From Ophelia neglecta (lineage: Eukaryota): 64,000 bases of DNA. This document shows, in pieces, positions 33,995 through 63,905 of the stretch (positions are counted from its first letter, which is position 1; every line of letters starts with the position of its first letter). Below the pieces are notes generated by a model that searched no databases, was not told where the DNA came from, and saw only the letters and a program-made list of their open reading frames with translations. Where the stretch lies: contig OZ260662.1 of NCBI GenBank assembly GCA_965285935.1, forward strand, positions 44,330,001-44,394,000, written 5' to 3'. Made by a program: the position numbers and the translations under genes.

Positions 33995-35438
33995 ATGAGT
34001 CGATTGCATGTTTCGACATTTTGGACACTTTTTCTATGTTCACTGTTCCAGGACAATACAAAGGCACAAGGTAAGATTGTACAATGTCCTATACGGTGCA
34101 TAAGTTAGTTTATATCGCCATTAAATATGCCTAACATATAGATTAAATGTTCATAAGTTTCAAACGACTCTGATTCTTTCGTATAGTGGTTGTTTACATG
34201 TAATTCCATGGTATAATGTCTTTGCTTTTGTTGTACTATCATAGCACTTAGTTTTTATGCCGTTCGATCACTTTTACAGTCACTTGCCCGTCCACCGCTG
34301 GTCCTTCATTTATCCAGGATGCAAACCATGTTTGCCGAATGAGTGTTTGTGCTAATGGCGTGGCCATCCCCGGGGCCATCTGTCCGCCAGCGGACATGGT
34401 CCGAGCTATGGAAACTGCCGACCCAAACCTCTGCTCCCAATGCCGTATGTTCTGCTTGCTGTTACACAGCCTTATGTATCATACATATATTTATATATAT
34501 ATATATATCTTCATTCCCCTCCAATGTCTGGAGAGTTTATGAAAAGCTAGACAAGACAGTATGGTGGATATTCACAGCGAGGTGCATAACATGAATAATA
34601 CATATACATAATTCAAATCCATACATCAATGAATGAAATATTGGCAGAATGCCATAGCAATATCAGAACTGTTGGTTTAAGGTGAAGGAATAACAAAACA
34701 TAGAGAATAGAAAGGGGGCAACCATATTCCTATTATAGATCAGGTAATACTACAAGTCACATTCATCAAGTATATTTTACGTACACCATGAACATCCCGA
34801 ACACCTCGTTCAATGTATGAATTCATTTGTAATACATACATCAGACGGCTTGCTCGCTAATGCAAGACGTCGCAGCAGGAAATGGCGAAAATCATCGTCA
34901 ACGGTCAGGCACAAGCGTCTCTGGTCTCCTTTATCTGTCATATTACGTCATGCATCTCTATACAATACTGAGATCCTAATCTGAAACTTCATAATGATTT
35001 GAGAACCGCGTACTGCTTAAACAAGTCATATAATATTACTTTTTTTACCTCGCAAAAATACCTAAATCAGTTATATGTTGTTACAAACTATGTTTTGTGT
35101 CCATTCATTGGAGGTGTTGCCTCCTGAAAAGACGATGGCACATGCCTTAGTTCGTCCATGTTTTTAAAGCATTACACTAAACGCATCATCGGGAAATGTT
35201 TTAATAGTATTTTACAGTAATCTGCCAGCGCTGGATGAGATTCATGCCGGCCTGGTTCTGTGATAAGCATTTAGTTTGGCACAGAAAAACAACCTTACCA
35301 GTGGCTGGCTTTAAAACCATTGCTTAACTCTGGCTTGTGGCATTTCCTCTAACAAGCATCGAATCAATACCCTTGATAAACGGAGATGTAATAGTGTAAA
35401 TAAATCAAAATAACAATAATAATACTTATTATTATTAA

Positions 35439-35478
<40 letters not shown>

Positions 35479-37017
35479 AACAGATAATACAGATGATAAA
35501 AACAATTACAATAACACTTACTCAATGTAGCGCTCAGTGTCGCGATTATTTCACTAAGCCTTTGATTCAAACTGCAGTAAAATAATTTAAACATGTCTTT
35601 CCAAGGCAAGGGGACGTGTAATGAAGAGGGTATTGTTATTGTTTACTTTTTAATTAATTACTGCGCATGATATCTTATCCTATTTTGATAATAAAGACGA
35701 CAAAATACCTGTTTCTGATCAATTTTATGATTAGAAATCTACCAGCCATAAAACCGAATAGGCATTAAACCTTGAGTGATCTTACATACACAGAATACAC
35801 AGAGAGTCGGAACACTCACCTATTCGGAGGCACACTTCAGCAGTCGATCACCACCCTTAATGATTGTCTTCTAAGATGTGCCGTAGATGGAGTTTGCCAA
35901 GCGGTGGACTTTGACCGTCGAGGCGGCGGTTCCTGCTGGTTTCACTACGCTAATACTTCATGTTCAATGGAGAGTAGTAAACCTGAGTGTAAACATTTAA
36001 AATTTGTCAACTGTTGTAAGTGTGCAGCTTATCTGTTTTTAATCGTTTCTTTTCTTCAGATATAGTGAGATGATTTGGAAGCCCGAAAATCAATCAGGAA
36101 ATAATCCATTTCTATTATTCTTTAGCTACGACAACAACCTCAACCGCAACGTCATCCGCTACAACCATAACAGCCACTACCACATCCACTGCAACAGTGG
36201 TGACAACCACAATACCCACCACGACAACCACAGCACCAGTGGTGACAACCACAATACCCACCACGACAACCACAGCACCAGTGGTGACAACCACAATACC
36301 CACAACGACAACCACAGCACCAGTGGTGACAACCACAATACCCACAACGACAACCACAGTACCAGTGGTGACAACCACAACACCCACCACGACAACCACT
36401 ACACCAGTGGTGACAACCACAACAGCCACCACGACAACCACAACACCAGTGGTGACAACAACAACACCCACCACAACCACTACGGCAGGGGTGACAACCA
36501 CAACCCCAACCACGACAACTACTGCACCAGTGGTGACAACCACTTTATCCAATGGTTCGTACGAAAGACCAATTTGAAGGCAGTTGTTAGCTTTAGGAGC
36601 AATTCAAGCATGTTTAAAGCCCAGTCCCAATAGAATGGAGCAAATGATAAATGTATTTACATTTTAATTAAAGGCCAATGGTCCCGAATATTAAGTAAAG
36701 GAAGCATTATAACATCTAATTTCAAATACGCATGCCCACATTTGAGAACGAACTAATAAAGTGATGTTATTTCATTGACAGATATCTCCCAATCGCTAGA
36801 TATGCACATCTTAGGCGGCGTCCTTCAGGATGCAGCCATTGATACAGATATCAAATGTTTAATCGCCTGCATCAATGACGTCACAACTACATGTGCCGGG
36901 GTCGACTTCGACGGCAACACCAACCGCTGCTGGTTCCACACCACGGCAACCAAGTGTAACACACTGCTCGCGAAAGCAAACTGTTCAAACTACCGCCTGG
37001 GTGCTTGTACTGGGTAG
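33995..37017 (+). CDS. Gene A: secreted chitin-binding-like / PAN(Apple) / mucin / PAN protein, 375 aa
   Basis: Exons: 33995-34070 (signal peptide MSRLHVSTFWTLFLCSLFQDNTKAQ), 34280-34444 (6-Cys CBM14-like), 35794-36015 (PAN), 36126-36554 (Thr-rich) and 36782-37017 (PAN, TAG). All introns are GT-AG phase 1 and the joined frame is open for 1128 nt. AATAAA at 37044-37049. Confidence 0.88.
35427..35477. repeat. (ATT)n microsatellite in gene A intron 2
   Basis: Visible trinucleotide run. Confidence 0.95.
36197..36543 (+). repeat. Coding 42-bp tandem repeat ([14 protein letters not shown]), ~8 copies, mucin domain of gene A
   Basis: The unit GTGGTGACAACCACAATACCCACCACGACAACCACAGCACCA repeats nearly perfectly; one unit is 3 bp shorter. 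Confidence 0.95.
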
Positions 37018-44137: not shown

Positions 44138-44150
44138 GCCACCGCCATGG
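44138..44150 (+). promoter_or_regulatory. Consensus Kozak context of the gene B start codon
   Basis: GCCACCGCCATGG directly precedes a signal-peptide sequence. Confidence 0.8.
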
Positions 44151-47100
44151 TTTCACTCTATTTTCTTATCTTCGGATATGCCACCATTGCATTCGCACAG
44201 GACGGTTTAAACAGTCTGAGAGAAGACAACCAACCACCAAAACTTGCCGAATGTAAGATTATTTGATACTTATTTATACATTTAAATCAATAGAAAATCA
44301 ATGTTTGAATATTTCCACTAGCCTTAAATCTGTTTTAAAAAGTACCACTTTCAGTAAACTGTTCATATTATATATTTATGTATTAAGTATGGCGATTCAA
44401 ATTTTATGCTATATTTAACGTGCACCGCTGTTCCGACAATCGCTGTGACTGAAAGTTTGCTCTATCCGTTATCAGATTTTGTCAGTCGAGAAGATGGGTT
44501 CTACCTGGCCCCCAGTTCTGTGGTTGCCAAGGACGTGACGGAGGAGGCTTGTCTCTCAGTCTGTCTGATGAATCCCTCCTGTTTCGCCGTCGACTACGAC
44601 TTCCAGTCTCGGTCCTGCTATGATCACTCCAAGGAGTCCTACTGCGAACTGGACTTAATGAGACCAGCCACCTACAGGGTACATTACAGAAGAGTCCCTT
44701 GTGTCAGAAGTGAGAGTAGTTTTACGAATTTCATGTGCATAAAACACATTTAAAACCACCATCAAAATATCAATACCACTTAAGAAGGGCATTATAAATC
44801 TAGGAAGCGAGTGCGTAAAAGTTGCCACCTTTCTTTGGCGAATATATGGGTCGGATGAAAATAAGTGTTGCCTCAGTTTATATCTTTAACTAGAAACTAT
44901 TTAAGTAATGATGGAACAATATGGTGAAGTAACATTAGGTTCAAACCTTATTTGGCCATAATGATGCAATTACAACAATTTTCTCTGTTGGATATGTTGC
45001 AGGCGAAAATGGTGACCTAGAGGTCGGGTTCAGCTCCTTATACCAACAGCAGCGCGTAAATGGGGGTCGTCTGGCTTGCAGTTCCTGTAACGTCGCTTTC
45101 TGCATGAGTCTGTGTCGAGATAGCGTCGAGTGCCGTTCCATCGACTACTCGTATGACCAGCGCATGTGCTTTCGTCACTTCCGGGATACCCCTTGCCTTG
45201 ACCTTGTGCGCACAGATAACGTTGGCTATTTACACGCCGAGAAAGAATCTTGTGCATTTGGTAAGAATTTATTGACGGCTTATTCGTATGCTGCATGCTT
45301 ATAGAGCATCGAGTGCTGAGCTGTACTAGTTCTGTTTAGCCGTTCTGTGGCAGTAACATAACTGTAATGATTTATTTTAAAAACAAAGAGGGGTTTCGTC
45401 TTTGAATAAGCACAAATGCATACTTTTGGTCTACCTGTCGAGTTCGTCTTATCATAGTGGCCCTAGGTCTAAAACAAATCGCTCTGGATGAATTCATGAC
45501 TCTTTTTAATGCAGATATTGACACTGAGGACAATTCCGCTACAATGGAAGCAGGTAAGATGCCCATCCCGATAGAAACATATTGGTTCAGTTATGGCGAT
45601 CGCGTTTGTTCATGAGAGCTCGCAACGGTTACCCGACTAACTGTCTAGTTATTTCCGATATGAACCAACTGATAGATCTAAAATTAAAATAAAACACATT
45701 AGCATGTATATGAAATACACGAATTTAGTACTATGTGCCTTCCTAATTATTATGATATATTTAATTGGTGGAAAGTAAATGAATTACACCGTATTTACTA
45801 ATTAATTTACAGGCATAGCAATAACGGAGCCACCCCCCATAATGAACATGTCATCGGAGACAGCGTTAACGGGTAGGCCTAACTTAGCATTGGGTTTGTA
45901 ATAGTGTGCAGAGAGCTAGGGGGCACATATTTATGGGTTATTATCATTGGGACCATAAATTATTTTATTGGATCTAATTCATAGAATACAATCATACATA
46001 GGTTGTAATTACTCAGTAAGAAATGACAGTGGCCCATTACAAAAGTACGGCGCCTAATTAGTGGAGCTATTTTAGCTGTTATTTGTTTTTCATTTTCCAA
46101 TTATTCACCGCTAATTAGGTCTATAATAGGATGCAACCTCGGAGGACACGTTGATAATGTATAACCTAAGACTATTTCAGTGTATACCATTCCTTCATTT
46201 ATTAATTTAAGTCAATGGTTTTAGGTATGATTGGAAAAATGGAAGGTTTTCGGATAAGCGGTGGGGCGATCAGGTTTGGAAATGTGACCGAGCGGCGTTG
46301 TGCTATGTTATGTGCCCAGCAAGTGTCCAGCCAATTCACTTGTAACGCCGCTGACTACAATCTGGTCACCAATGTTTGTTTTCTGCACTCATCGGAGAAC
46401 GCCTGCAACCCCCTCGAACCCAACTTAATGTACAACCACCATAGGAGAGTAGAATGTGAAGGTACTTGATATGTTACATTCCACGCGCAACCAACGTATC
46501 GATGTGTCTAAAATATCACATGTAAAGGAAACTATTACAGAATTCAACATTCCTATTACTACGATGTTGAGCCTACAATACGTTAAAGGAATTCGAAAAG
46601 CTTTACATACCAACGTCGGTTTATTTCATCTTTCTCGTGTAAACAGAGACCGTAATTGACTACTGTGCGGCCACTTCTTGTCTAAATGGAGGAACGTGTA
46701 GAAATGTATTGGCAACTTACCAGTGTGACTGCGGTCCGAGGTACACAGGAAGAAACTGTGAAACAGGTAACACATATATACTTAATATTCACATTGTTTA
46801 ATTTTTGTTCATTGTCAAGTTACCCTAGTTAGTCCTGTACAAGTGTTTTTTCAAACGTTATTCGTAGGAGTATTGTTTACCAGCTTATTATATATAATTA
46901 TATGCATCTGTAATGTAATATTGTACAATAATATGTATATTATTATCTCTATAATAATATTATTTACAATGGTCCGTTACCATCATTCCCTAGAAACCTG
47001 TAGAAATCCTTTAAAGGTGATTCTTAAAGCTCGCAGTCATTAAATTTTATTCTCTATGTACGATTCTTGAGCCTCCCCCCTCCCCGCCAACAAAATAGGA

Positions 47101-50100
47101 CGGTAATTTACCCCCCTCCCCCCGACAGAAGATTGAAACTTAACACCACCCTAGCCCGCCCCTCCCCCAAAATTATGTAATATCTTAATACGACATTTGA
47201 GCAAACTACAATTTTACTATCATTGCTCCAAATCCCCTCAAAAAAATAAGGCCTACAGGATTTTTCCTATTATATCTATCAGCGTGGTATTTCGTTACCA
47301 GCAAACGACTGCACAAGACTCTTGTGTGAACGTAATAACATCCACCCTAAAGGCCTCGTGACATACATTGTAACTAGACAGTTTAGCATTAATAGTTTGT
47401 ACTACTGACTTAATGAACTACATATATGATTATGAGAGTTTCGAACACAGTACAGTAAAGTATACTCTGATATAAGCCAATGCCTATTTTCCATATTAAA
47501 TAACATTGTCACGTGGTTGATTTGTTGGACAGAGCTTGATCCCTGTGACAGCTCTCCCTGTGAGAATGGAGCTACCTGCGCGAGTGCTGACGACGAGTTC
47601 GTGTGCGAATGTGCTGCAGGATACACCGGAACTACCTGTGATCAAGGTTAGCAAACAAGCCAGGGAAGTCACGTGTTGTCAAATAATATAAAACAAAATT
47701 AAACCTCTTTATAAAATTCGAATAGCAAGAGGGAATCAAACAAAACTTAGAAATGTTATTAAAGATGGTTCATATAACTATGGCGTGTTTTATTTTTAAT
47801 TTTTTTTTGCCTGTAATAGTAACTTGCAACAGAACCTTGACGAGGACACCGTGGGCCTTTTTACCTCTGATGTTACCCTTGACAGTATGGAAATAATCTG
47901 TTAATTCTGGAGTCAATATGTTTAATGTTTTATCTGTTAGAAATCAATGAGTGTGATCCCAACCCTTGTGTGAATGGAGCGACTTGTGTGGACGAGATCA
48001 ATGACTATAGGTGTAACTGTTTAGTTGGATTCGATGGCATCAACTGTCAGAATAGTAAGAACTGATATTACCTTGTTTTAAAAAGCACCAAATGGATACC
48101 CAATAGAGGCCTTGATATTCTGTGACCAATCACAAAGTTTCCTCAATATATTATGGTGTGAATGATTACAAGACACTACCATTACTTCATAGACATTATT
48201 ATTTTGATTGATTTTACAACATCCACAGTTTTTGAAGTTGATGTACACCTAGCAATGAAACTCAATCATTTCCATGATATATTAATCTACAGATATTGAT
48301 GACTGTGCAAACAGTCCTTGTCAGAACGGAGCTCAGTGTATGGACGCGGTCAATGACTACTTCTGTGCCTGTCTGCCCGGCTACGAGGGAACCAACTGCC
48401 AAACTAGTACGGATATTAACATGTCATCAAATGTTAACTCATAAAATTATTAATCAAATAAGCATTTCTAATGCATAAATACTTTTATTTGTGTTAATTC
48501 ATTAACCATTATCAATGAAGGAGTGAATAACTGTTACATTACTAATATTCATTTGCGTGTTTACTAAGAAATTGATCGCTGTGTTGCCAATCCTTGTGGA
48601 GACCGAGGTACATGTGTTGACGGGACCACCGCGCACACATGTCAATGTTTGGCAGGCTATATTGGAACAAATTGTGAAACCGGTATGATATCTCGGACGG
48701 TTCTTACCTCCGGGACTGCTTGGATAAACATGTTGTCTCAGACTCTTGTTCTATACTTTTTTCTGCAGTAATTTCTTTCTATTATTTCACCAATATTCAG
48801 TTATTTATCTTATGTTTTGCATGAATTATATTTATCTTGTCATTTTAAAGTGCACTATTTATTTATAATTTTGTTGTCGTTTACTTTTTCATTTTTATGT
48901 TATTTTAGTTATAAATCATTTATATATATATTTTTTAATTTCTCCATTGAGTTACACATTTTCCGTTCGTTTTCTTCTTTCATTTAAGTTTATTTTATTA
49001 TTTTTCTTTGAGCAACTTATTTTTCTTTTCTAAGATACTCAAGGTTCCACTGCTCATGACTAACATAAAATACATTAATAATAGAATTTTTTTTCTTGAA
49101 ATCCGTGTAGATATAGATGAATGTGATCCTGATCCTTGTGAGAATGGTGCTACATGTGTGGACGGTATAAACGCTTACACATGTGAATGTGCAGCTGGCT
49201 TCGAGGGGGTCATATGTCAGATAGGTAACAGCATTTTAAACGATTCGGTATTGCCTCGCAACACCTCCAGGCCACAATATCTAGTACATGTAATTACATG
49301 TATCATGTCCAACTGTGGATACACCTGTCAGTGTGTTCGTCCTGTCACGTGACATCCTAGTTCGTTTGGCATGTGATAGAAAGAAAACGGCAACGCCGGG
49401 TTTCTCGATCTGCACACTATATACGAGTCATGGTATATCATGTGGTTTTTAGTGAGTTCTATATAAAGAAATAAGGGAGAAGAATATCCAACCTTTTTAT
49501 AGGATGAGGCCAAATATGTTTAAATTCGTGGAATGGTTTACTGTAAGAGCAAGAAAAAAAATAGCTATATATATATAAGTAAGGCGTTTGAGAAACATAA
49601 ACTTAATAATGGAAACTTATCATAGTATTATGTGTGCTTTTGCAAATTACTGTGCTTGCGGTTTTATCTTATGTAGGCATTACTAGTATTATAGTACGTT
49701 TGGGCTTAATTGCGTTCTCCTGAGTACGTGTAAATATACATGTAATTTACAGTATAAATGTACAAGTTTGTACAGATTTCATTGAGATAAATCTATCTTT
49801 TTTTGAAGCTTTTCGAATGCCCTTTTGAATCGACATACATCTGTTGTGTTGCCTCGAACAGAGTTAAGGCTTTGACAGACCTTTTGAGTAATGGGTGCAA
49901 TAGAAACATAAAGTTTCTTATAGTGTCGACATAATAGCACTATAAACATAATAGCCGTTTAAGAAAACCACTGATAGGAAAAAAGTCACACTCGTGTTAT
50001 CATTGGATCATTATTCCGCCCGTTACTTTACCCATGCTAACGGTGTGCATTTCACCCTGCAGATATAGACGACTGCAACCCCGGACATTGCCGGAATGGA

Positions 50101-53100
50101 GGGCTATGTGAAGATGGCATCAATACCTACACCTGTGTCTGTGTAGAGGGCTTCACCGGCAACGATTGCCAGATAGGCAAGTACCAAACTCTGCCTAAGA
50201 AATTAATCACAACAATAAAATTAATGTACAAATATTTCTTATTTTCGTACAATCATTCTGTTACTTAAACCCATGGAAAATGATATCGCAGATTTTCTTT
50301 TCCAATCATATGCATGAATTTTACGTTAACCATGAAATGTTAGACCCTATATTGGTGATCACTCAGTTGAATGAAAGTGTGAATGTATGATTTATATTCA
50401 CCGGATATCAGACATAGATGATTGTGTCGATACACCCTGCCAGAACGGAGGCAACTGTACAGACGGAGTCAACGCCTTTACTTGTACGTGTGAGGAAGGT
50501 TACGAGGGAGAATTGTGTCAGACAAGTAAGTCAAATCAGACCACCCATTTTGGGAATTTTTGGGAAACTATTTCATTTTCCGTTTAACCGCCCTCCTACT
50601 CTCATCCCCCCCCCCCCTGCTCCTTCTAAATCCCTGGTTCTATCCACTTAACAAAACCATCATTTATTACATATAGAACCGGTAATCATAATATCCATCA
50701 ATACAAACGTCTCGATGCAGTATTTTAGAGTCGTGAGAAGAAAAGGTTATTTAACCTGCTCTCTTTTTGTACTTTGTACCTCGGATAGGATAAATGGCGT
50801 GGCTACTTAGTAGTTTTCTAAAATCCAGTCCGATCCACATTTCAGGATCATATCACAATTTCTCCTTAATTCCATCTTTAGGCCTATACTAGATGTATAG
50901 TTCGCCTAAACCTATTAATATCAAGTATGGAAAATAAAAGGTTTACAATGTTTATACGTCCTTTCCCTTATGTTGATAAAAGGGGAGATTAATGTGTCTG
51001 TCTTGTCTATGGTTTTAGTTACAGATGATTGTAGGGATGATCCTTGCGGAGGTCGAGGCCGGTGTATGGATCTAGACGCTGATTTCATGTGTGATTGTGA
51101 TGCGGGATACACGGGAAAATCTTGTCAAACAGGTATTTACCTCACTACCAATTTCAATATGAATCACTACATACAAGTTATCAGTTTTATATACTTCCTA
51201 ACACTCAACAACTTTTATTTTCATTTATTTTGATATTTTATTTTGATATTATTTATAGACATAGATGATTGTGTGGAGGACCCTTGTGAGAACGGGGCCG
51301 TCTGCGTCGACATTCTGAATGGATACGAGTGTAACTGTGTCCCTGGTTACGAGGGAGTGAACTGCGAGACAAGTAGGTCAAGCCATCCAACTACAATAAC
51401 CTTTGAACCCACTTTTATTCGCCTTTTCTTATCCGTTTACTCAATGATGTGCATTCAATAAAGATCTAGTGAGTAAAGAAAATTAAAGTACAATCACCAA
51501 TGGCATCTCTTAAACGTTTCCCCTCAAATGGGCAATGCTTACTTTTTTGGTATTTTTATCTATTTTAGATACAAACGAGTGTTTGAGCGAGCCTTGTGAG
51601 AACGGTGCAACCTGTAACGACATGATCAATGGTTATTACTGTACATGCGCTGCTGGCTTCATCGGCGACCATTGTGAGACAAGTAAGTGGCGTCGGTTAG
51701 ATATATACAGGACACTATACATTTATAGACAAAATGAAATAATTGTAAGCGTTATTTTAGTGTCTTGATCAAAACATTTGGTTTTTTTACTGTTAATCTG
51801 CTATACGGTTATTAGAAAATGATCCGTCCATATTTAGGGTTATATCAGTTGAAAATGAATCACTTTACAATCTATATCCTGCTTCAGACTTTGATGACTG
51901 TGCTAGCATGCCGTGTCAGAATGAGGGTGTGTGTCTAGACGATATCAATGGCTTTAACTGTGGCTGCTTCGCTGGATTTGTCGGACTACAATGTGAAATA
52001 AGTAAGTTAAAGGTAGAAAAATAATAACTATTAAATTTGCTCCTATAAAAAAGAGTGGTTTGATTTTATTTCTAGTGATTGGGACTATTAAAAATATAGT
52101 ACTGTCAATCGTTTCACTGGTGCCGTAAAATCTTTACTGTTTAATAAGCACTTTTATTTGCACAAGCCCTTTTGCATCAACATCAGCTTGTAAAGTCCTA
52201 TCAGTCATAACTTGAAATAACATTATAATCAACTAAATGAATAATTATTGTTACATGAACGCATGAGAAGTTTTTAAGGGAAAGCGAGCTGCATAACTGT
52301 TAATTTTAAATTCTTCATAATTAATGATTTGTAACTCAGACGAAGACGATTGCGCTGGTGACCCGTGTATTAATGGAGGCACATGTACGGATGGCATAGC
52401 CGAATACAATTGTCAATGTCTGGAAGGTTTCACAGGGCAACAGTGTGAATACAGTAAGTTAGTGAATTAATTCACAGGTCGAAATATTGGGGCATTAATT
52501 TTCTTTGCCTAGTTTTGTGTACAGCTTGTTGCGAAATAAATAATCTAATATTCAAATATATCATAGGCATTTATACGCATTAAAACATTGAAGTATATTT
52601 TACACATTCTTATATGAAAGGTAAACTTGTTATATTTATCATTTTTCAGTTTTGATAGATTGATATGTAGTATTCACAATTTTCGCTGTAGACATAGACG
52701 AATGTGAGGCGAATCCTTGTGAGAATAACGGGACCTGTATGGACCTCGTCAACATGTATACCTGCATGTGTCTACCGGGCTACACCGGCATCGACTGTGA
52801 AACTGGTAAGGATCACTGGCGAGGCTAGCGAAATGTCAATGGGTGGGTGGGGGGGGGGGGGAGAGAGGGGGCAGGTACTTATTGTATAGCAGGCTGCTGA
52901 GAAGAGCACCTAAAGCTGTTAGTTATTCTGTAAAAAGCTTAATATTGGTCGACTGGATATGATGGCGGATTTAGCGTAGCGATGATAACCGCCGATTTAT
53001 GGGCAAATCGGCCAATATATTTTAAGGGTCAAATTATGGAACAATCAGAAACCGCCAAGTGTTCTTGTTTCTAAAATAATTGAGCGATTTAAAAGACGTA

Positions 53101-56100
53101 GTTTTCTAGGAATGCCCCCATTTTATCTGTTTAACCCTTAGCATACACGGAAAGTAAGTTTATCAATATTAGACATTTATATCAAGGTCAAGGACAAACT
53201 AAAATACGACCAAATTCCTTGTATGTGTGTTCCTGTTAGAATATTTATTGTCTCAGTTTGACCTTGAAATAAGACCCAAGGTCAAATTCAATGGCACTTC
53301 TTTTTTCCCTGCATATGAATCCCCACTGATGTTACATATATTTTGCTTAACTATCTTGCACCGTGAAGATCTGTGACACTGAGAGCATTACAAATGTACT
53401 GTTACTGTTTGAAAATTTGTGAGGCTTTTTATTTCATCAAATATGATTAAATTGCTAAGCCTTTAGATACATTTTGTACAAAGTTTTTATACAGTACACA
53501 TGGTGCAATATTAGAGTATATGGCCTGTTGGATTCTGGGGAAAAAATGTTGATTTGTTGATATTCTGGACAGGTCTTTTCAGTACACTATACATGGTTAC
53601 ATAGTGGCCTACATTTTATAAACCTAAAGAGAGGAGACAATAATGAAAGCACGTATTTCGCAAGGCTTTAGCTTTTTAAAAAGTGTCAAAATTAGTAATT
53701 CGTGAACAAACGACGACTTTGTGACAACATGATTCGATGAGCTCAGTTTTGCTTTGCAAGCTGAGCTAAAAATGCAATTGATTTGTTATTTTCAATTAAT
53801 GACCTCCTATTGGTCCGAAATAAATCAGTGAGCCTCCGAAAATTGCCCCCTCCCCTATCCCCCCTGGTAATAGTAGTGACTTGGCTCTTCGGAACACTCC
53901 TTTTTTTATCATGGACTCCTCGGTTTGACCACTACCTTTAGCCACACTCTTGGCCATCCTCTTTCCGTTCGAAGACAAAAGGACAAGGATCTTTTGTGCA
54001 ATGGAGGCAGTAACCAGAGATATTTTCAGGCTATATGCAAATGCTGAACTTGCTTTGATGCCAATGACCTTTACATACAAATTTTATACGCACGCATACC
54101 GCAAGATTTTGCTATACTCCACTTGTAATCATAAAATGTCCAGCTTCCGCCTTGGTGTCACAGCGAACAGATAACGCCATGAGCGTTTAATATTTTTCAA
54201 TCCATGACACGAACGTGTGTGCATAATTTTCTCTTTAAAGCAATAGTAATTTAAAATGGCGGTGACTTTCCCACGCACGTACTTTGTCATTATTCAGATA
54301 TCGACGAGTGCTCAGAGGGGCCCTGTCAAAATGGCGGACTTTGTGTCGACGAAGTGAATAGATTCTTGTGCGTCTGTCCTTCAGGATACGAGGGCTTGAC
54401 CTGTGACACTGGCAAGAACATGGGACTTGTCCTAATTCTTTCCTTTTTCATATTGCATTTCAACAAAAAGATGTAAAACGTATCTCAAGTACAGTTCGCT
54501 CTAAAGTTAAGTTTATTCCTCAGTATTGAAATATAATTATGTTTTGTTTATATCAGAGACAAATGAGTGCGCTCCAAATCCGTGTCAGAATCTTGGTATC
54601 TGTGAAGACTTGGTGAATGGTTATAACTGTACCTGCTCCCCGGGGTACGTCGGGGATAACTGCGAGATAAGTTAGTATATACTACCTCGAGCTACAAACC
54701 TTTTAGTTTTGAAAATTCTTTTTCAGAACTTCTATAATATAATATAAGAGATCTCCGCACTTTACACTTTCACCCTAAAATGATGTAGAGGACTGCCCGC
54801 TGCCCTCCTTGTACATTGCATTATGTACTTCGAAAATAGGTTGCTCCTTCCTGGCTGAGTATAAGAAATTTATAGAATAAGGAATGCTTATAAATTGCGT
54901 TTCTTTCGACAAGGCATGTTGACGGCCTGGCCAGACACGTGTGTGAGCGGCGGGATCCTAAACAGGTCTCTCACGACGGCCGAGTCGTGTATGGAAGCCT
55001 GCATGGCAAGTGACGAATGCTTCGCCGTCGATTTTGACATGGTGGATAACGACTGCCTCCTCCACACAACCTTGACCTTCTGTAGTGAACGTGAACACTG
55101 CCCCGGAAAAATCCATTACCTCTTTGTGCCATGTTTACCAGGTAAGAGATTTGTCCATCGGTTGACAAACCTGCAGCATATATATGTCTGGGTTAAATGT
55201 TAGAGGCAATTTTTGGACTTGACTACGTTCGTTGTCAAATTCTCACTCACCAATAATCAGACGTTTCAATGTTTCAATGTGTCAGCAAATTTTATAGCCC
55301 GGACTAAAACAAATAATTTATTCTTGGTTGTAACCCTTACGCCACTTGGGGATATCTTCTCCCAAGGTGACAGCAAAGTCCTTTTAAAGTTCCCAGGTAA
55401 TCTTGTTAGTTGGGAGGGCGATGTGTCTTCACGTGATCGTAAACCAATAAGGAAATCAGCGCAACAGTTTCCGGCAACGCCCGGACATTCTTAGTTCAGG
55501 CATCCTAAACACAGTTATTTTGACGTTTCCACTCAGAAAGGAGATGACTCGGGGGTCATCCGAGCTCTCTGACTAGTATATTGTCATTTCCCGAGTTTTT
55601 TTTGATTAAATTCAGGCATACGTTTTGATTGATATCAGGTTATAATTCTCCAGCTGCCTTTTCGATAACATGGTGTAACCAGCCGCTGATATAAGTTAGC
55701 GTAATTTACTTAGATTAAGCCACGAAGAAAGCGTTAAGTGGAGAAGAATAACCCGGGTGTTCAAAACACGTTCATCCGCGCATATATTTTCATTGCGGCA
55801 TTATTATATTTGCCATTTAATTTAAATTAACCATTGCTATGCACCCGCTTTGCGGCTTTCTGTGATATTGTGCAGCCAGAGCGCTGTCAATGCTGCATTT
55901 TTGTGCTATTGTGCGACGAACACTTACAGTGTTAACTTACATGGTCAAAACATTTAACGGGCTCTTTAAAGTGGACCATGCTCGACCATTCAATGACTCC
56001 GGAAACGCAGCATGATGTAGATTGATATTTAGGCGTTTACCTGAGGCGATGATAAAATAATGGCGCTTGACCATTCGTGTTTAATATCTCTTGATTATCA

Positions 56101-57652
56101 GCGCATGTCATTGTCCTATTTTTATTGGTACATATTGATTGTGATTACTATTCAGGATAGGCTTAATTCGTGTTAAATATATTCCCATCAGGCGTCACTG
56201 CTGATGACCAGATGAGGTACGTTAGACGATCCTATTCTGTGACTGGGGGCCAGGTTGTGTCGGACCGGAACTGCCCTCGCTGCAGTCCCGACATGTGTCT
56301 TAGTATCTGCTACTTCCAGGACGATTGTGAGGCGGTCGATTTTAACATGGCAACCCTCAGATGTTCATTGCACACCAGTAATACAGTTTGTAACCCCATT
56401 GAACCAGAACCAAATACAGTCCACTACACAAGAGAAATCTGTGGTATGTCCGGCAATTTCTCCACCAACCAGAAATATTATTAAAAATGAACTACCGACA
56501 CTGGGAATTATAATTTCTGTATATACTTTATATTATTAATACATACTTATAAAACAATAGCATCCTTGGTTAAATTTTACATGTTGGTTGACCTCGATTC
56601 TTATGTATTTGATTATGATTAAAACTCTTATATTTACATACGTAATTAAGGTGACTAGAACAAACAATCGGCTAATTGTCGACCAAGTATAGTATTCATT
56701 GCATCAAACATGTATGACATTACAGAGAACCAGAAGACAATAGCGCCGCGTGGGAGCTTTGCAGCGGGGAACTTACCGGCACCTACAAGTGCGTCGTAGT
56801 ATAGTTAGCCTTTTTTTCTCCACTTGTGTCTAAATTCCCTGTGATTAACAATGTCGGTGTGTCTTAATTCCCGTATGTGTCACAATCATATGGTTTATTC
56901 GGAATCACGCAAACAAGGTGATCGATTTAGTTTTTCCCTTGAATAGCATTTTCTATGTGGAGTTCTTTTTCAAATCATAAATATTAAACTGAAGGTTAAT
57001 TTTTTGCTGGCTTTCTTTTGTTTAGGGTCATTAATTAGGAGTTTTAAATGATATGCCTATTTCTACAACGACGAGTCGCTTGGTGCATCAAGTGGCCTGT
57101 CAGTTGAAACTGAAATATTTTATGAATTCAGACTGCCATTTTACTACGTATTGCAGGCATATCACCCGGGTGGCAGGCCTATCCCGGAAGGTTTCAGATT
57201 GGTGGACGACAGTATGAGATGCCTAATCGGGGGGCCACCCACATGTACACCGGTGACCAGTGTCTATCTCTGTGCGAGGATGACGAACGCTGTCTGGCTG
57301 TAGACTACAACTCAAATGATGGCACGTGCTATGCTCATTGGACAGAGGAACGGAAGTGTGGGCCGCTCCTGGACAACCCAGAAATATATCATGTTAAAAG
57401 ACCCGGCCGCTGTGGTAGGTGTCTCTGTAACTCAATTTATCATTACATATGTTTACTAATAAAGAATCAGTTATGAGAAAATGGAATATAAACTTACATT
57501 TTAGCCAATAGCTAACCCACAAGTTTACAAATTTAGCGCTACATGAAGACTTCTAATAACATCCTCGTTTTTCAGAGTTCATATTTAATGAAGAAGGGGA
57601 AACTAGTATGCCTTACCCAGAACCAGATCTCGTTGGAGTAGAGCGAGAGTAA
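44147..57652 (+). CDS. Gene B: secreted PAN(Apple)x3 - EGF x16 - PAN x3 protein (fibropellin/Notch-type EGF repeats), 1213 aa
   Basis: 27 phase-1 exons. Signal: 44147-44252 ([17 protein letters not shown]). PAN: 44476-44709, 45003-45260. Linkers: 45515-45553, 45813-45872. PAN: 46225-46461. EGF: 46647-46766, 47533-47646, 47941-48054, 48293-48406, 48569-48682, 49111-49224, 50063-50176, 50412-50525, 51019-51132, 51259-51372, 51569-51682, 51888-52001, 52340-52453, 52692-52805, 54298-54411, 54557-54670. PAN: 54914-55141, 56192-56443. Linker: 56726-56788. PAN: 57157-57414. Terminal: 57576-57652 ([25 protein letters not shown]). The joined frame is open for 3642 nt. AATAAA at 58013. The linker and terminal exons are the least certain. 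Confidence 0.9.
46647..54670 (+). repeat. Array of 16 EGF-like exons (15 of exactly 114 nt), mostly calcium-binding type
   Basis: Each exon encodes one 6-Cys EGF, e.g. [38 protein letters not shown]. Confidence 0.95.
52870..53890. mobile_element. Non-autonomous DNA transposon/MITE-like element, copy 2, in a gene B intron
   Basis: Colinear homology with 18949-19875 over ~53180-53890. The left boundary is uncertain. Confidence 0.65.
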
Positions 57653-60218
57653 AGCCTCACTATACAACATACCTATGCTGTGTTCACCCTATTGACATGA
57701 AGGTTTACATGGTATAAAAGGCCTCAAAGGGAGACTGGACTACAATAGAAGTATCGCGTTTTTGTTGAACAAAAACAATATATTTTTATACACTACGAAT
57801 ATAAATCGAAGTGGAAATAAGTAGGGGCTAAAAAATAAGATAAACCCATATGTTCAAAAGTCGCTTTTCATAGTTTTCAAAAGGTCATAGATTATTTTCT
57901 TTAATCGACCACGAAATTAGTTCCGATTTGACGTATACTTTTTGTATCAGCACTATTGAATTTATTTTATAAAACACTACGGAAATGTAAATAAGCGGTG
58001 AAGGAAATATTGAATAAAATACATTGGTATACATGTTCGCGCGTTGTTTTCAGAGTGCGATTGAGAACTTTTTTCTATATTTATGATTTTAAATCGATAA
58101 AGAAAAGCAAATCAGGTGTAAAACTACGTTAGAACCAAAAATTTATCTCAAATAACAATAACAGATAGATTTTTTTTAAATTGTGAAATCTTTATTTTTT
58201 GCTTATACGTTTTAGGTCAAAGTATTATTTATAACATTGGGAGTTAAATATTATTAGATTTTAGCAATTAATAGATATCGCCTTGCAAAATAAAGACCTA
58301 ACGAACTGTCTTGACATTTAGGTGTGATAAGAATAGTGATCATTCATGCATTAATTATCTTCATCTGGAGAAAATTCAGATATGGTAGTTGTTTCATAGA
58401 ATTTACTAAATTTAAAGTATTTTATTGACTAATAAGCATTGTAGTCGTGATATTCGTAACTGTGTTTGACACTGTGATTTTGATCGATATGCATTAAAGA
58501 CGACATGGGTCCTATAACTGATCCTTGTTAAACACAAAATTACAAGTAGGCCTATGGAGCATTGCTTCATTTACAATACCAGTGACATTAGTAGAAAGAT
58601 ATGTTGGATATTGCATTTTTCTCTCTTAAGTTACATATTCAAGGATATACATTTTAATTAAATACATACCTAAGTTCAGATACAAACGCTACCAAAATAG
58701 CAGCACGAGAAATAAATAATGAAAAAGTTAGGAATAGGAAGCCACCATCAGAATTCACGCAGAATTAGTCATTTTAAGGATAACCATTGACTGCGCCCTT
58801 AAGATATGGGTCCGACAGGGATAGCACTATATAACTCAGTCCTTAATAAATTAAACCGTGTAGTAATGCACTATAAGCACCGAACAAGACACTATGGAGA
58901 TAAATATTGCATAAGTTAGGCTAAGCCTTTAGTTTCTCAAGCACGAATTAAGCAATTATTTATCCAAAATATGAAATCAGTATGCTATTATTTTGCCAAT
59001 CATTCAGTAAGAAACTATTTGCTACAGTATATAGGGTATGCTTGACTACTGCATATGGCAAATTGCTAATTCATTCGTAAGACAAAAAGTTATGTTAGAC
59101 CAATGTAATGTTTTAAAATTCAGGAAAGGTGTTGCAAATTTATAAATGTGCAAGTGTTTCAGGGGGGCACCCTATTTGTTCAGCAATTAGGTTTTGGTTC
59201 AATGGCGCTTCGATAATTCAGGAATCGGCAATTATTTCCTCAAAATTTCCGTTATTTGTTCTCAACTTTTAAATTTGTAAATTGATTTTGAAAGAGCGTT
59301 GCTCAATAGAAGGTGTCTCGTATGCCTCTGCATTACATTATTTTTCAAAAAACAATAAGTGACAATACGCGGTTTTGCCACACCGTGTTTTGGCGAATTG
59401 CAGCATTTTTAAGAAACATTTATCTAAAAAACATGAACACCTTATTAAAGAATAGACATATACAAAAAATATCAGACCCAAGAAGGAATGAGTGGCTTGA
59501 TTACGAATATGCGTTAAAATTTATATTAATAACCAAATCGTGATGTTTGAAAGGGGGTAAGCTTTACTTTGGTGGGAACTCAGGAAGGGACATCTATAGT
59601 GCGGAGAATTCAGTAATGTAGGTATTTGAGAAATAAAAAATCCCCAAAAAAGTAATTTGGAGGTTTTTTAGAAAACCTAGAAATGAAATTGAGAATAAAC
59701 TGGATAATTCAGCTTCATAAAACAGGGATTGCATGAACAATTCTTTCCCCATATTGTATGCATAAGATTTAATGCCAACCGCAAAATTCGTTTAAAACGG
59801 GAACTCAAATAAAATTTTAAAATCATTGGAATGTAAAATATAGATACTGTCCTTTATTTGTGTCTTTAGTAAATTTCATTCATAGTTAAGGTCGTGTAAA
59901 TTGAATTTATTTTCGTATATCACCGTGTATAGATCTACCTGGGCTTGTGATAGGCCCTATACCTAAATACATTTAATGTGGAGTTTAATTCTACAGTCAA
60001 AATAATAATAATTCCATTGCATAGATATAATGACATGTACAGAGCAAATTTTACTACCAATTTAAATATTATTGCTGGTGATTATAAATTTTATGTGCAT
60101 TACCGCAGATTGTCATATTCAACGCCTGGGGCTTGGAACAGGGACGGTTCTCGATATGTAGGTCATTCTAACTTTAGTTCAATCAGATTTGAACTCACAA
60201 GGCATGAAATCGGTGACA

Positions 60219-60532
60219 ATGAACTTATTAAATATCGTTTTGTTTTTCCAGTGGATATTCAACAATGTGTTGGAATTAACCGCTCAAAATGGTAAGTTTT
60301 GTTTTATTGTTACGCGTATACAGTCTACAGATTAAGTGTGAATCTTGATTGCCAAAAAGTAGGGGGACGAATGTATCACATATTTGCAATATGCTTCATT
60401 GTCGCCTTATATAATACTGAATATATACGCACATATCATATATTTACATGTGCAAGAATGATTTCTATACTTGACTATTGCCAAAAGCGATAAATATTTT
60501 ACGGTTTTTAATACATTATTATCATTAAAAGT

Positions 60533-60575
<43 letters not shown>

Positions 60576-63500
60576 CATTATTATTATTATCATTATTATC
60601 ATTATCATCAATATGAATAAGGCAATTCCAACTCGAATTGGGAAGAATTACATAAAATGGTCCAATATTTAATCCAACATTGGCAGAATAAGTCGTTTAT
60701 TTGCATAGTTGGGTTTTGCCAGCGTTACTAAATTGAATATGGTAGCGATTATTCCCATGGAGGTGGGATCTACCAAAAAGAAAACTATTAACATGAAATT
60801 AACATTTTTGTGTTTATTCTATTGGAGAACACTCACATATACAGTAAGGTTAGAAGATATAAATCTACAAACATTCCAGACTACCCTACTTCCGTTTCCG
60901 TGTTTTCCACCAAGCATACTTTGATTTCGATACATAATTTGTCTAAGGCATCTCTTTATAAAGCTTGCTATCATAACGGACGCAGCGGGCTCGAGTATGC
61001 CAGGCTTCGTCGATTCTTCTTTTTCTATGTATCCATTATTAGTATATCATTATCATAAAAATATTATAAATATTATTATATCTGTAAACGATCATGTGGT
61101 CATTTATCACAAAATCAGATAATTTTTCTCTATTCATAAATGCACTTCTCATAACAGAAATTGCTGCTACATACATTGAGGGCTATGGCATACCTGGTGG
61201 TATAAAGAAGAGAGAGTTCAGAACTCTATTACAATGTTTGCAAGCTTGTGCAAAAGATTCAGACTGTTTGGGTTTGGATTTCAACACAAGAACGGAAAGT
61301 TGCTACTACCACCCGTCGAGTACAATTTGTAACCAACTGGAGAAGAAAACGAATTGCCTCCACATCCAGATGACAAATTGCTGTATGTTTATATTTACAA
61401 TGCTTTACCTGATTTAGATAAGCAACAAAGATATAAGACTGGATGAAACATGTTTGTTGCACATAAAGCTCTTATATAACAGTTTATAAATGACTCGAAT
61501 TCCTTACATATTATTGTATACCGTTATTGACAGCGACCAGTAATGTTGATGAGGACAGTGATACAACGACAAGAAGGGTTCAAACAACCTCAGCCACCAC
61601 GACAATTCCCACAACCACAACGACTTTTCCAGCAACCACAACGACTACTCCTACCACCACCACGACTATTCCTACCACCACCACGACTATTCCTACCACC
61701 ACCACGACTGCCCCTACAAGCACAAAGTTGTCGACAACAACGCAAGTTCTATTTACAACGAGCAACAGTCCATCTGACTTTGAACCTTCCAATGCTTCAC
61801 AGAGGACTGAATCTCAGTCGAGCATTGACACCTCAGGTCAGTACGTTTCTGAAGTTTAAAGATTTGGAAAAGCCAGGTGTCTTCTAAAAAGAAACCACAA
61901 GTCGTCGGAGTCATACAAACTCCTCGTATAATATATATGACTCGGTCATTACAGCCATATAGGCCTATTTTTCTCTATTTCAAAGCCTTTCATGATATCT
62001 AGTCATATTTATTTCCATCGGTCCTGCCATCAGCGTACCTGTTTACTGCACCAGGAATGTATGTCTCAGGCGGATATTTTCGCCACCAGGGTGTGCGACA
62101 ACAAGAGTGTCTTGACGCATGCGCCGCTCAGCCTCTCTGTTTGGCTGTAGATTACACAGTCCCTGCTGGAGGATGCTACTTCCACGGGACTGACACCTAC
62201 TGTGGTCAATTGAGAAACCTGTCTAGTAGCACGCACTACAAACGAGCCCTATGTGTTGTTGAAGGTAACCCAATGAGAACGCAAGATAACATAAACAGGA
62301 CCAAAGCTAATTGGCATACATTCGAAAACACCAAAATTTTCACATTGTCTTTGATAACCACCTGTTTGATATTTGGATTTTTAGGTTTATCTCTTTTTAT
62401 GTCGTTCATGCTGCTTTTCCAGGGAGTAACCAAGTAATAGAGATGTACCGAGGAATGTATTCCCCTGGTGATAGTTTGCTATGTGAACAAGGTTGTACAA
62501 TAGAAACGTGTATGGCAATGTGCGAACTCGTTGACGAGTGTGTTGGCGTCTCAATCAATACAACATCCGGGACTTGTCTGGCAAACGCCCCTTCCAATGT
62601 ATGTCTCCTAAACCGCAGAAGCCCAGATGTGGTTCAGGTTAACTTAGGACCGTGCTGTGAGTTTAACTTATGTTCTTTATAATCAGTGATATAAAATCAA
62701 ATTCCTCTGTGAAACAGAGTACATTGTATGCATCGGGCAAGAGAGTGTCCCCTTTCTAAGACAGACTTTTAGGCGTGTATTAGTTCTCACGAAGGTGGCG
62801 GTGGGAGTGGGGGTTTAGCAATTTTGGGGAAAACAATTAGGTTTTTTTTAAGCCCCCGCCATCATAAGTGTCGTAGTTCTTGAACCCCCCCCCCCCCCCC
62901 AGCTTACGCGGTTTTACGTGTCAGTGTCCTCCTGGGTTTACCGGAACTAACTGTGAAACAGGTGGGGAACAATACAAATCTCAAGCGGAATTCCCATCCA
63001 GGACATTTATCATTACATTAAGGATTTCCTTTCTAGATTATAAAATTGAATATACATTATAATGCACGATTTTTCTGATGACTGCATGGCAATTCATGTC
63101 CCTGATCAACTTATTCACCGCAGATATTGATGAGTGTCACAGCAACCCATGTCAACATGGCGGGAGATGTATTGATGACGTGGATAGCTTTATATGTGAT
63201 TGTCAGCCGGGTTTCTTTGGTTCAGATTGTATCATTGGTAACGTTATGGTCAATATAATACAGAAGAAATTGCCGTACACTTCTTACATAAACATATGTC
63301 GCAGTCAGACATATGTGCCTTTTCACCATGGGATTTTGCGGATTAATGTACTTTCATTTTAATATGAACATATAACCAAATTTGGACATCCAAATCAGAT
63401 ATATTCAGTTGCATCCCCAAATGCTAACTGGACGGGGACTTTTATGCAGGAAGATAATCAGAGCAATGAATAAGTGTTCCGTCTCTTATAGACAGTGATT

Positions 63501-63905
63501 CGACATATAACTACTTTTTCAAAATCGGTTTTGCCGGTTTTATAGCCACAGAAGCATTATTGTGGAGCTGGCATCAAATGATTATAATGTATCATTTATG
63601 AGGATCTGATGCCAAAATTGAACATTATGCAGCTCTATGTTGCCTTGCACAATTCCACAAGTTGGTAGAAACAATAGCTGTGCAGAACTAGGAAGGAGTG
63701 GGGGCATTTTCTTCTCACTTTTTTGAAGTTTCTTCCCACTGCTCTCCTTTAATTGTGTAAACCCTTAAATGCGACATTTTTCATACTGCAGAACTTAACG
63801 AGTGTGCCAGTTCACCTTGTGAAAATGATGGTACGTGCGTTGACAGGGTCAATGGATATCTGTGTGTATGTGAGTCCGGCTTCACAGGGACCAACTGTGA
63901 AATAG
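60219..63905 (+). CDS. Gene C: secreted PAN / mucin / PAN x2 / EGF-repeat protein, 3' incomplete
   Basis: Phase-1 exons: 60219-60291 (signal-like [24 protein letters not shown]), 61158-61382 (PAN), 61534-61836 (Thr/Ser-rich), 62034-62264 (PAN), 62423-62656 (PAN), 63124-63237 (EGF) and 63792-63905 (EGF, GC donor). A half EGF exon lies at ~62901-62961. TATAAA at ~60083. Confidence 0.85.
60535..60610. repeat. (ATT/ATC)n microsatellite in gene C intron 1
   Basis: Visible trinucleotide run. Confidence 0.95.
61596..61718 (+). repeat. Coding 21-bp tandem repeat (PTTTTTI), mucin segment of gene C
   Basis: About 5-6 units resembling CCTACCACCACCACGACTATT. Confidence 0.9.
62901..62961 (+). pseudogene. 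5'-truncated EGF exon remnant in gene C
   Basis: Encodes only [20 protein letters not shown] followed by a G|gt donor. It is preceded by a poly-C run rather than the first half of the EGF. Confidence 0.7.

Follow-up and report, generated by a model that had tools for sequence, protein, structure and literature searches.

We analysed a 64 000-nucleotide stretch of the Ophelia neglecta genome (GenBank assembly GCA_965285935.1, 762 Mb; contig OZ260662.1, G000:C2:44330001-44394000), hereafter the window, and characterized one of its genes, gene B, whose predicted product carries three PAN (apple-type) domains at each end of a rod of 16 epidermal growth factor-like (EGF) repeats. The PANs of gene B are numbered B1 to B6 in order; alpha, beta and gamma denote PANs by their place, first, second or third, in the terminal triplet, and delta denotes other PANs of the family. 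Our comparisons indicate that the two heads share an alpha-beta PAN pair at most, such as the neighbouring gene C also has at its front, and that the motif linker, the gamma PAN and the tail are exclusive to the rear head. Because the ends are not copies and only the rear one carries the conserved three-domain unit, it is likely that gene B connects two different partners and not two of one kind; on balance, we take its product to be a non-covalent tether with two different ends.

Exons for PAN and EGF domains were located by a splice-site scan. Gene B (44147-57653, plus strand) comprises 27 exons, all of them assigned to signal, PAN, linker, EGF or tail, and its frame runs open from the ATG at 44147 to the first stop, codon 1214 of 1214, at 57653 (1213 amino acids). 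All internal exons are in phase 1-1, and two donors are GC. From its N-terminus, the protein consists of a signal peptide, B1 and B2, a stretch encoded by two mini-exons, B3, the 16 EGFs, B4 and B5, a linker from a single exon, B6 and a tail (Table 1). The initial annotation had described one dumbbell-shaped gene with PAN-PAN-short linker-PAN at both ends; exon scan and joined frame bore this out, with exactly 16 single-exon EGFs in between, although the boundaries it gave were too narrow, as the signal-peptide exon lies upstream and the tail exon downstream of them. The product has 138 cysteines, an even number in every domain, and a computed isoelectric point of 4.07 for the mature chain. 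Its highest 19-residue hydropathy beyond residue 30 was 1.14, so that no membrane stretch, and in particular no Notch-type single-pass segment, was found in gene B. The protein is predicted to be secreted, soluble and acidic.

The difference between the heads is seen in their class marks. Position profiles were built from nine domains per position, with gene B excluded, and assigned 33 of 36 domains correctly on leave-one-out (gamma, 9/9). B1 and C2, the second PAN of gene C, were of the alpha class; B2, B5 and C3, the third PAN of gene C, of the beta class; and B6 of the gamma class, while B3 scored lowest on gamma. That B2, B5 and C3 belong together through an extra cysteine pair had been proposed in the initial annotation: the pair was located in all three (C3 at 62423-62656), each of which scored best on the middle-position profile, and was present in only 10 of 97 domains family-wide, so that we do not regard it as a chance feature. 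Four gamma marks, which we defined after viewing the alignment with B6 included, were all present in B6 and all absent from B3 (at least three in 12 of the 97 domains). A genome search with a gamma exon returned three matches at E ≤ 2e-16 (itself, gene C' and B6), the next being at 2e-8, and B3 was absent among 36 matches; the search with B3 returned 24 matches, none of which was one of the three gamma-class exons. A profile of the rear linker and the start of the third PAN, made from nine proteins other than gene B, gave 26.7 bits at the rear junction of gene B, a score reached by 0 of 300 shuffles, and no match at the front junction. The six cysteines of the third PANs, also put forward as a mark, carry no information, because the same six are invariant in all 11 PANs of the window and all 22 of the surrounding cluster.

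The unit at the rear of gene B recurs twice in the cluster, as the whole of gene C' and as the end of gene D. Gene C' (L001:4713-8480, i.e. G000:C2:44398713-44402480) encodes 307 amino acids with alpha, beta, linker, gamma and tail only, and has its own signal-peptide exon (L001:4713-4770) approximately 1.1 kb after the gene C stop. Gene D (476 amino acids) places two delta PANs and a linker before the alpha-beta-linker-gamma triplet. Among public records, P0022 (full-length, cluster of 8) has the layout of C' and pairs with it domain by domain (90/98, 99/100 and 64/63), and P0051 combines, within a single protein, the end of a PAN with beta, linker, gamma and tail, much as in B4 to B6; B5 and B6 pair with its domains at 95/98 and 93/93. 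Compared with this terminal module, the rear head of gene B has a beta PAN with the extra cysteine pair, the motif linker, a gamma PAN and a short tail, its first PAN, B4, being nearer to beta or delta by profile and placed with alpha in the best tree but not in others, and the front head has neither the motif linker nor a gamma-class third PAN.

The initial annotation had also proposed that the EGF array is an extended spacer, and this is plausible. The calcium consensus ([DENQ]-x-[DENQ]-[DENQ]-C ... C-x-[DN]-x4-[FY]-x-C) is found in 12 of the 16 EGFs, EGF1, 2, 5 and 9 being the exceptions, and the G-[YF]-x-G packing motif in 15. The array is 610 amino acids long and contains 113 Asp/Glu versus 13 Lys/Arg residues; 8 of the EGFs have an O-fucose and 3 an O-glucose site pattern. 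We rejected a recent expansion or a periodicity of the array, since mean identity was 35% outside cysteines and 30% at four-fold third positions, and flat over lags 1-8; the repeats are old, to judge from these comparisons. At about 3 nm per EGF, the 16 repeats would give a spacer of about 45-50 nm. Calcium-binding EGF (cbEGF) pairs of fibrillin and Notch are linear, whereas other EGF pairs need not be, according to a passage in PMC3906135, and triple cbEGF repeats stiffen with calcium, according to one in PMC10214685. Together with the calcium consensus in 12 of 16 repeats, these passages suggest that the EGF rod is likely to be segmentally stiff.

We propose the following course of events. 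Phase 1-1 exon shuffling likely assembled gene B: its front would go back to an old alpha-beta PAN pair put to new use, as also seen in gene C, and EGF exons of the Notch-like type would have entered this lineage's gene between PAN modules. Where the surrounding fluid is rich in calcium, the runs of cbEGFs (EGF3-4, 6-8 and 10-16) would become stiff and form an extended spacer, which may bend at EGF1-2, 5 and 9. The rear head would bind the ligand of the free triplet protein C' and the front head another one, and the tether may sit in a secreted matrix such as mucus, cuticle or tube. For the PAN heads, protein ligands such as collagen seem as likely as glycans.

The domain assignments of the heads rest on profiles and, for B2, on a structural model. 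Five of the six gene B PANs reached the Pfam PAN_1 (PF00024) cut-off of 21.4 bits (25.0, 26.3, 21.4, 23.8 and 30.5), and B2 scored 16.1. B2, the only gene B domain that was folded, gave an AlphaFold2 (AF2) model with a PAN fold, in which a helix with the C-x3-C core packs on a five-stranded sheet (pLDDT, the model's local confidence score, 89.4), and all eight chains found with Z ≥ 8 by structure search bear a PAN/apple domain. Foldseek returned no match at E ≤ 0.001, though nearly all of the rows listed were PAN-bearing, and an Atlas search with the Owenia protein P0008 gave no usable feature match (template modelling score by query < 0.3 only). B1 has exactly 6 cysteines, B3 6, B2 8 and B4 8. 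In the B2 model the extra pair maps to a strand-to-helix turn; nine of the 10 domains with this pair directly follow another PAN or PAN remnant, and the tenth, in P0064, comes first in its record. As a separate observation, a His before an early GG (62/97), a C-x-x-H motif (95/97) and a late C-x-H/N with an often unpaired Cys (52/97) recur across the 97 family domains and could form a metal site; all six B domains are without the first and the third.

An alternative in which the PAN heads bind one another, so that the product of gene B and those of C', D and further genes of the cluster polymerize to form a gel or fibre whose mesh size is set by the EGF rod, perhaps by disulfide exchange at the extra cysteine pair, appears unlikely to us. 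All cluster genes are predicted to be secreted and belong to the same domain family, many relatives have odd cysteine numbers (seven per domain), and the position of the extra pair at a turn of the B2 model would suit an exchange. However, the even count in every domain predicts no free thiol in gene B, and we retain the non-covalent tether.

Decidedly unlikely, in our estimate, is the history inferred in the initial annotation, namely that the whole PAN-PAN-linker-PAN block was duplicated and that the heads are still equivalent, which would make gene B a symmetric bivalent cross-linker. Both ends do have the same exon layout, B1 and B2 are alpha and beta as in the terminal module, and B4 lies near B1 in the best 57-row tree. 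Against this stand the unlike linkers, the missing gamma marks of B3 and the grouping of B6 with the terminal PANs of paralogues. Outside the invariant cysteines, identity was 17% for B1-B4, 16% for B2-B5 and 23% for B3-B6, versus 37-38% between B6 and the terminal PANs of C' and D; B1 was 34% identical with the first PAN of C'. Blastn between the heads gave only one 14-base inverted match (E 0.05). The annotation had expected a tree of the 11 PANs in the window to pair B1 with B4, B2 with B5 and B3 with B6; in that tree none of eight branches was starred, B2+B5 appeared at 59/75, and the other two pairs were not recovered. The 22-domain tree joined B6 with C6 and D5 at 90/84 (C4 to C6 being the three PANs of C'). 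In the 57-domain tree, B6 fell with terminal PANs of paralogues and of other species in a 13-member gamma clade (99.6/95), with B3 outside, and this clade was also present in a better free tree found later. Even if the block had been duplicated, one ligand for both heads should not be assumed, since the heads are now too different.

Several points nevertheless weigh against the reading with two different heads. The exon chain of gene B is predicted from genomic DNA, and the gamma marks were, as stated, chosen with B6 in view. The top tblastx match between the heads includes B3-B5, and the 22-domain tree groups B3, B4 and B5 at 82/80, with the result that no simple doublet history fits. In the trees, the beta PANs do not form a single clade, and B4, by its profile scores (Table 1), is not scored as alpha; it stood with alpha in the best 57-row tree and elsewhere in others. 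In approximately unbiased (AU) tests, B3+B6 gave p-values of 0.22 and 0.44 and a placement of B3 inside the gamma clade 0.25 and 0.34; single pairs as a whole ranged from 0.22 to 0.57, none being rejected. All three pairings imposed jointly gave p-AU 0.093, not rejected at 0.05, although this was the worst of seven trees (21.9 lnL lower, bp-RELL 0.009). A very old duplication of the triplet, with all the marks lost since, would also agree with these tests. The likelihood surface of the 80 columns was rugged, the first free tree being poorer than three constrained ones. As 80 columns give little power, the case for asymmetry rests on the class marks, not on tree tests. Finally, an AF2 model of the free triplet from 10 rows showed three folded PANs and no confident packing (pTM, the score for the overall arrangement, 0.35), and the PANs at either end may therefore be flexibly clustered instead of forming a compact head.

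That 'gene B' represents two adjoining genes (PAN3-EGF and EGF-PAN3) joined by the model, as might be supposed from the stand-alone triplet gene C' so close behind gene C and from the lack of EGF in any of 151 family hits, is very unlikely, because only two of the 26 introns exceed 1 kb (1492 and 1050 nt), the former, between EGF14 and EGF15, holding a dispersed repeat that accounts for much of its length and the latter, which is unique, separating domains whose equivalents P0051 joins in one protein; because a signal-peptide scan of eight introns, both long ones included, found a single candidate, weak and AT-rich, in the EGF1-2 intron, and nothing in the two long introns; because the six largest introns have no convincing in-frame terminal exon; and because the B3-EGF1 and EGF16-B4 introns measure only 185 and 243 nt. 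Gene B is likely a single gene by its exon structure. DNA contigs from three sequencing runs, used to check the assembly and to call variants, covered it by long colinear pieces. Exonic variants were drawn from 40 of 156 substitutions listed, plus 40 of 42 in a sub-region; among those listed, seven of 10 in gene B were synonymous versus 24% expected (P 0.003), and none of 12 listed indels fell within its exons. By this excess of silent variants and lack of exonic indels, gene B seems to be intact and to evolve under selection. In two of the runs, contig joints (window 52861-53679) leave out ~815 nt of the intron between EGF14 and EGF15, which may reflect an insertion polymorphism; we did not use them as evidence, as they match by only 21 letters on one side, beside a poly-G run.

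Table 1. Features of gene B and of the part of gene C that lies in the window
Feature	Position	Strand	Evidence
Exon 1: start codon and predicted signal peptide, phase-1 donor	44147..44252	+	Hydrophobic N-terminus
PAN B1, alpha class, 6 Cys	44476..44709	+	Pfam PAN_1 25.0 bits; profile alpha 77 vs next 50
PAN B2, beta class, extra Cys pair, 8 Cys	45003..45260	+	Profile; AF2 pLDDT 89.4; Pfam 16.1 bits, below cut-off
Front linker mini-exon 1, 13 aa, acidic	45515..45553	+	Predicted from splice sites and frame
Front linker mini-exon 2, 20 aa, Thr/Pro, unrelated to rear linker	45813..45872	+	Predicted, frame and linker profile
PAN B3, 6 Cys, non-gamma, nearest alpha/beta types	46225..46461	+	Profiles: alpha 47.6, beta 44.2, delta 26.1, gamma 18.1
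16 EGF exons: one of 120 nt, fifteen of 114 nt, phase 1-1	46647..54670	+	Splice scan; Pfam EGF on 2/2 tested of 16
Dispersed repeat in EGF14-15 intron	53240..53830	.	47 other genome matches
PAN B4, first of rear triplet, diverged, 8 Cys	54914..55141	+	Pfam 21.4 bits; profile beta 51.8, delta 46.8, alpha 38.0
PAN B5, beta class, extra Cys pair	56192..56443	+	Profile; sister to P0051 domain 1, 94.7/98
Rear linker exon, motif F-x-x-x-N-[FL]-x-x-P-T of terminal module	56726..56788	+	Linker profile
PAN B6, gamma class	57157..57414	+	Profile gamma 126 vs next 55; clade 99.6/95; sister to P0051 domain 2, 93/93
Last exon: short acidic Pro-containing tail and stop, no membrane stretch	57576..57653	+	27-exon model
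Gene C, part in window: signal peptide, PAN, Thr-rich mucin exon, alpha PAN, beta PAN (C3), first two of three EGFs	60204..63905	+	

Gene B belongs to a 45-kb tandem cluster of PAN genes on a single strand; the flanks examined extended 60 kb upstream and 140 kb downstream of the window. The signal-peptide scan also found the first exons of genes C, C', D and E, but not that of gene A. Gene C continues beyond the window (L001:514-3603) with a third EGF and with exons that we take, from their motifs, to be three-finger-like and LamG-like, followed by a stop; as Pfam did not name these two and tblastn with P0012 gave no match to them, the labels rest on those motifs. We considered and rejected gene C as a second dumbbell with a three-EGF rod, since these exons, the stop and a new signal-peptide exon split it from the next triplet. 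It is the second PAN gene of the cluster with EGF exons, and recalls Capitella ELU14836 (five PANs ... LamG), itself without EGF.

At the other side of gene B, gene A (window 33995-37014) consists of a signal peptide, a Cys-rich exon (~34280-34444), a PAN, a long Thr-rich exon, a second PAN and a stop. Its Cys-rich exon is weakly similar to the N-terminal module of Owenia P0008 (E 0.07), has no Pfam match, and presumably resembles a chitin-binding module. Gene E (L003, window-extended 87835-90720) encodes a signal peptide, a Trp/Pro/Ala-rich repeat and three PANs, and close matches in Capitella ELU04495 and P0035 indicate that it is conserved across annelids. Just downstream (L004-L014, window-extended 102900-204000) are two duplicated blocks with EGF exons and multi-kilobase Thr/Gly/Pro repeat exons, i.e. 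giant mucin-like genes. Elsewhere in the assembly, a dispersed two-PAN subfamily that has multiplied recently, with near-identical copies in tandem and with first domains that are basic and rich in Lys, was found on C12 (9.05-9.11, 40.97-41.00, 47.5 and 50.3 Mb), C5 (21.35-21.43 Mb) and C9 (41.87 Mb).

A broader reading, which we put forward with little confidence, is that annelids at large have retained the alpha-beta-linker-gamma triplet, from the split of Owenia and Capitella onwards, as an undescribed binding unit, either free or on varied stalks, and that gene B is a calcium-switched molecular ruler of fixed length carrying it opposite a different head. If so, the ruler would set the spacing of two components of a secreted matrix and stiffen upon release into seawater. 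One 45-kb cluster offers a natural comparison set, with the terminal triplet free (C'), behind two PANs (D) and on a 16-EGF rod (B). Since the free triplet is small enough to express and to search for its ligand, the function of this large, unstudied annelid PAN family would be directly testable, and this may bear on how worms build mucus, cuticle or tubes; C' is the best handle on the ligand of the terminal module, and P0022 its full-length counterpart in public data.

The arrangement in gene B was not seen among its relatives. None of the 151 family hits (the best 150 of 2983 plus one) contains EGF or shows a rod capped by PAN triplets on both sides; EGF was likewise absent from all nine other PAN loci sampled in the assembly (10-40 kb each). 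Word-index protein searches for longer relatives gave at most one match, which is weak evidence, and the one hit of a metagenome scan, a GC-rich contig with a bacterial-looking frame, was discarded as a chance match. Neither the PAN family nor the architecture was described in the literature searched, subscription papers and supplements lying outside the search. In passages of a phosphate-biomineral proteome study, PAN and EGF are among the domains recorded and the PAN family of gene B is not mentioned (PMC13425148).

The named multi-PAN relatives, all uncharacterized, are Owenia CAH1788818, CAH1790505 and CAH1788508, Capitella ELT97281, ELU14836 and ELU04495, and Lingula LOC106153018. They share the six-cysteine PAN subfamily, and the Owenia and Capitella records hold the alpha-beta-linker-gamma-tail module wholly or partly; they differ in pairing their PANs with Thr/Pro-rich stalks, other PANs, or trypsin-like, collagen or LamG parts. 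Across the family, PANs are attached to Thr-rich, trypsin-like, collagen, LamG and short Cys-rich N-terminal parts, and these partners fit binding modules of secreted matrix proteins. The leech protein LAPP (PDB 1i8n), likewise a secreted annelid PAN, is the best PDB sequence match (E 2.3e-5) and superimposes on the B2 model with Z 8.2 (rmsd 2.7, 77 aligned), whereas LAPP and saratin (2k13) are small, single-domain and 13% identical to B2. LAPP binds collagens I, III and IV, as stated in a passage of PMC7191736. The next nearest solved relatives are apicomplexan apple lectins. Plasminogen, HGF, factor XI/prekallikrein and MIC4/SML-2 share the B2 fold (Z 10.7 for 4a5t, 10.3 for 3hms, 8.4 for 2yil, 8.3 for 2ll4 and 8.1 for 7qox), but at 8-19% identity and with other partner domains. 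As the ligands of these domains span proteins, heparin and galactosides, the fold names no ligand.

The rod of gene B resembles those of Notch, fibrillin/LTBP and SCUBE in its 38-residue, one-exon EGFs and the frequent calcium consensus, and differs from these systems in having no membrane stretch, CUB, TB, DSL or avidin domain, and PAN-triplet caps instead. Fibropellins are tandem cbEGF proteins of the form EGF-CUB-EGFn-avidin; their CUB and avidin-like domains were not found in gene B, whose six large introns show no further coding exon. Gene B combines known modules in a new way within an undescribed PAN family, and it is not surprising in kind, because the modules are textbook ones and phase 1-1 exon shuffling is an established route to such proteins.

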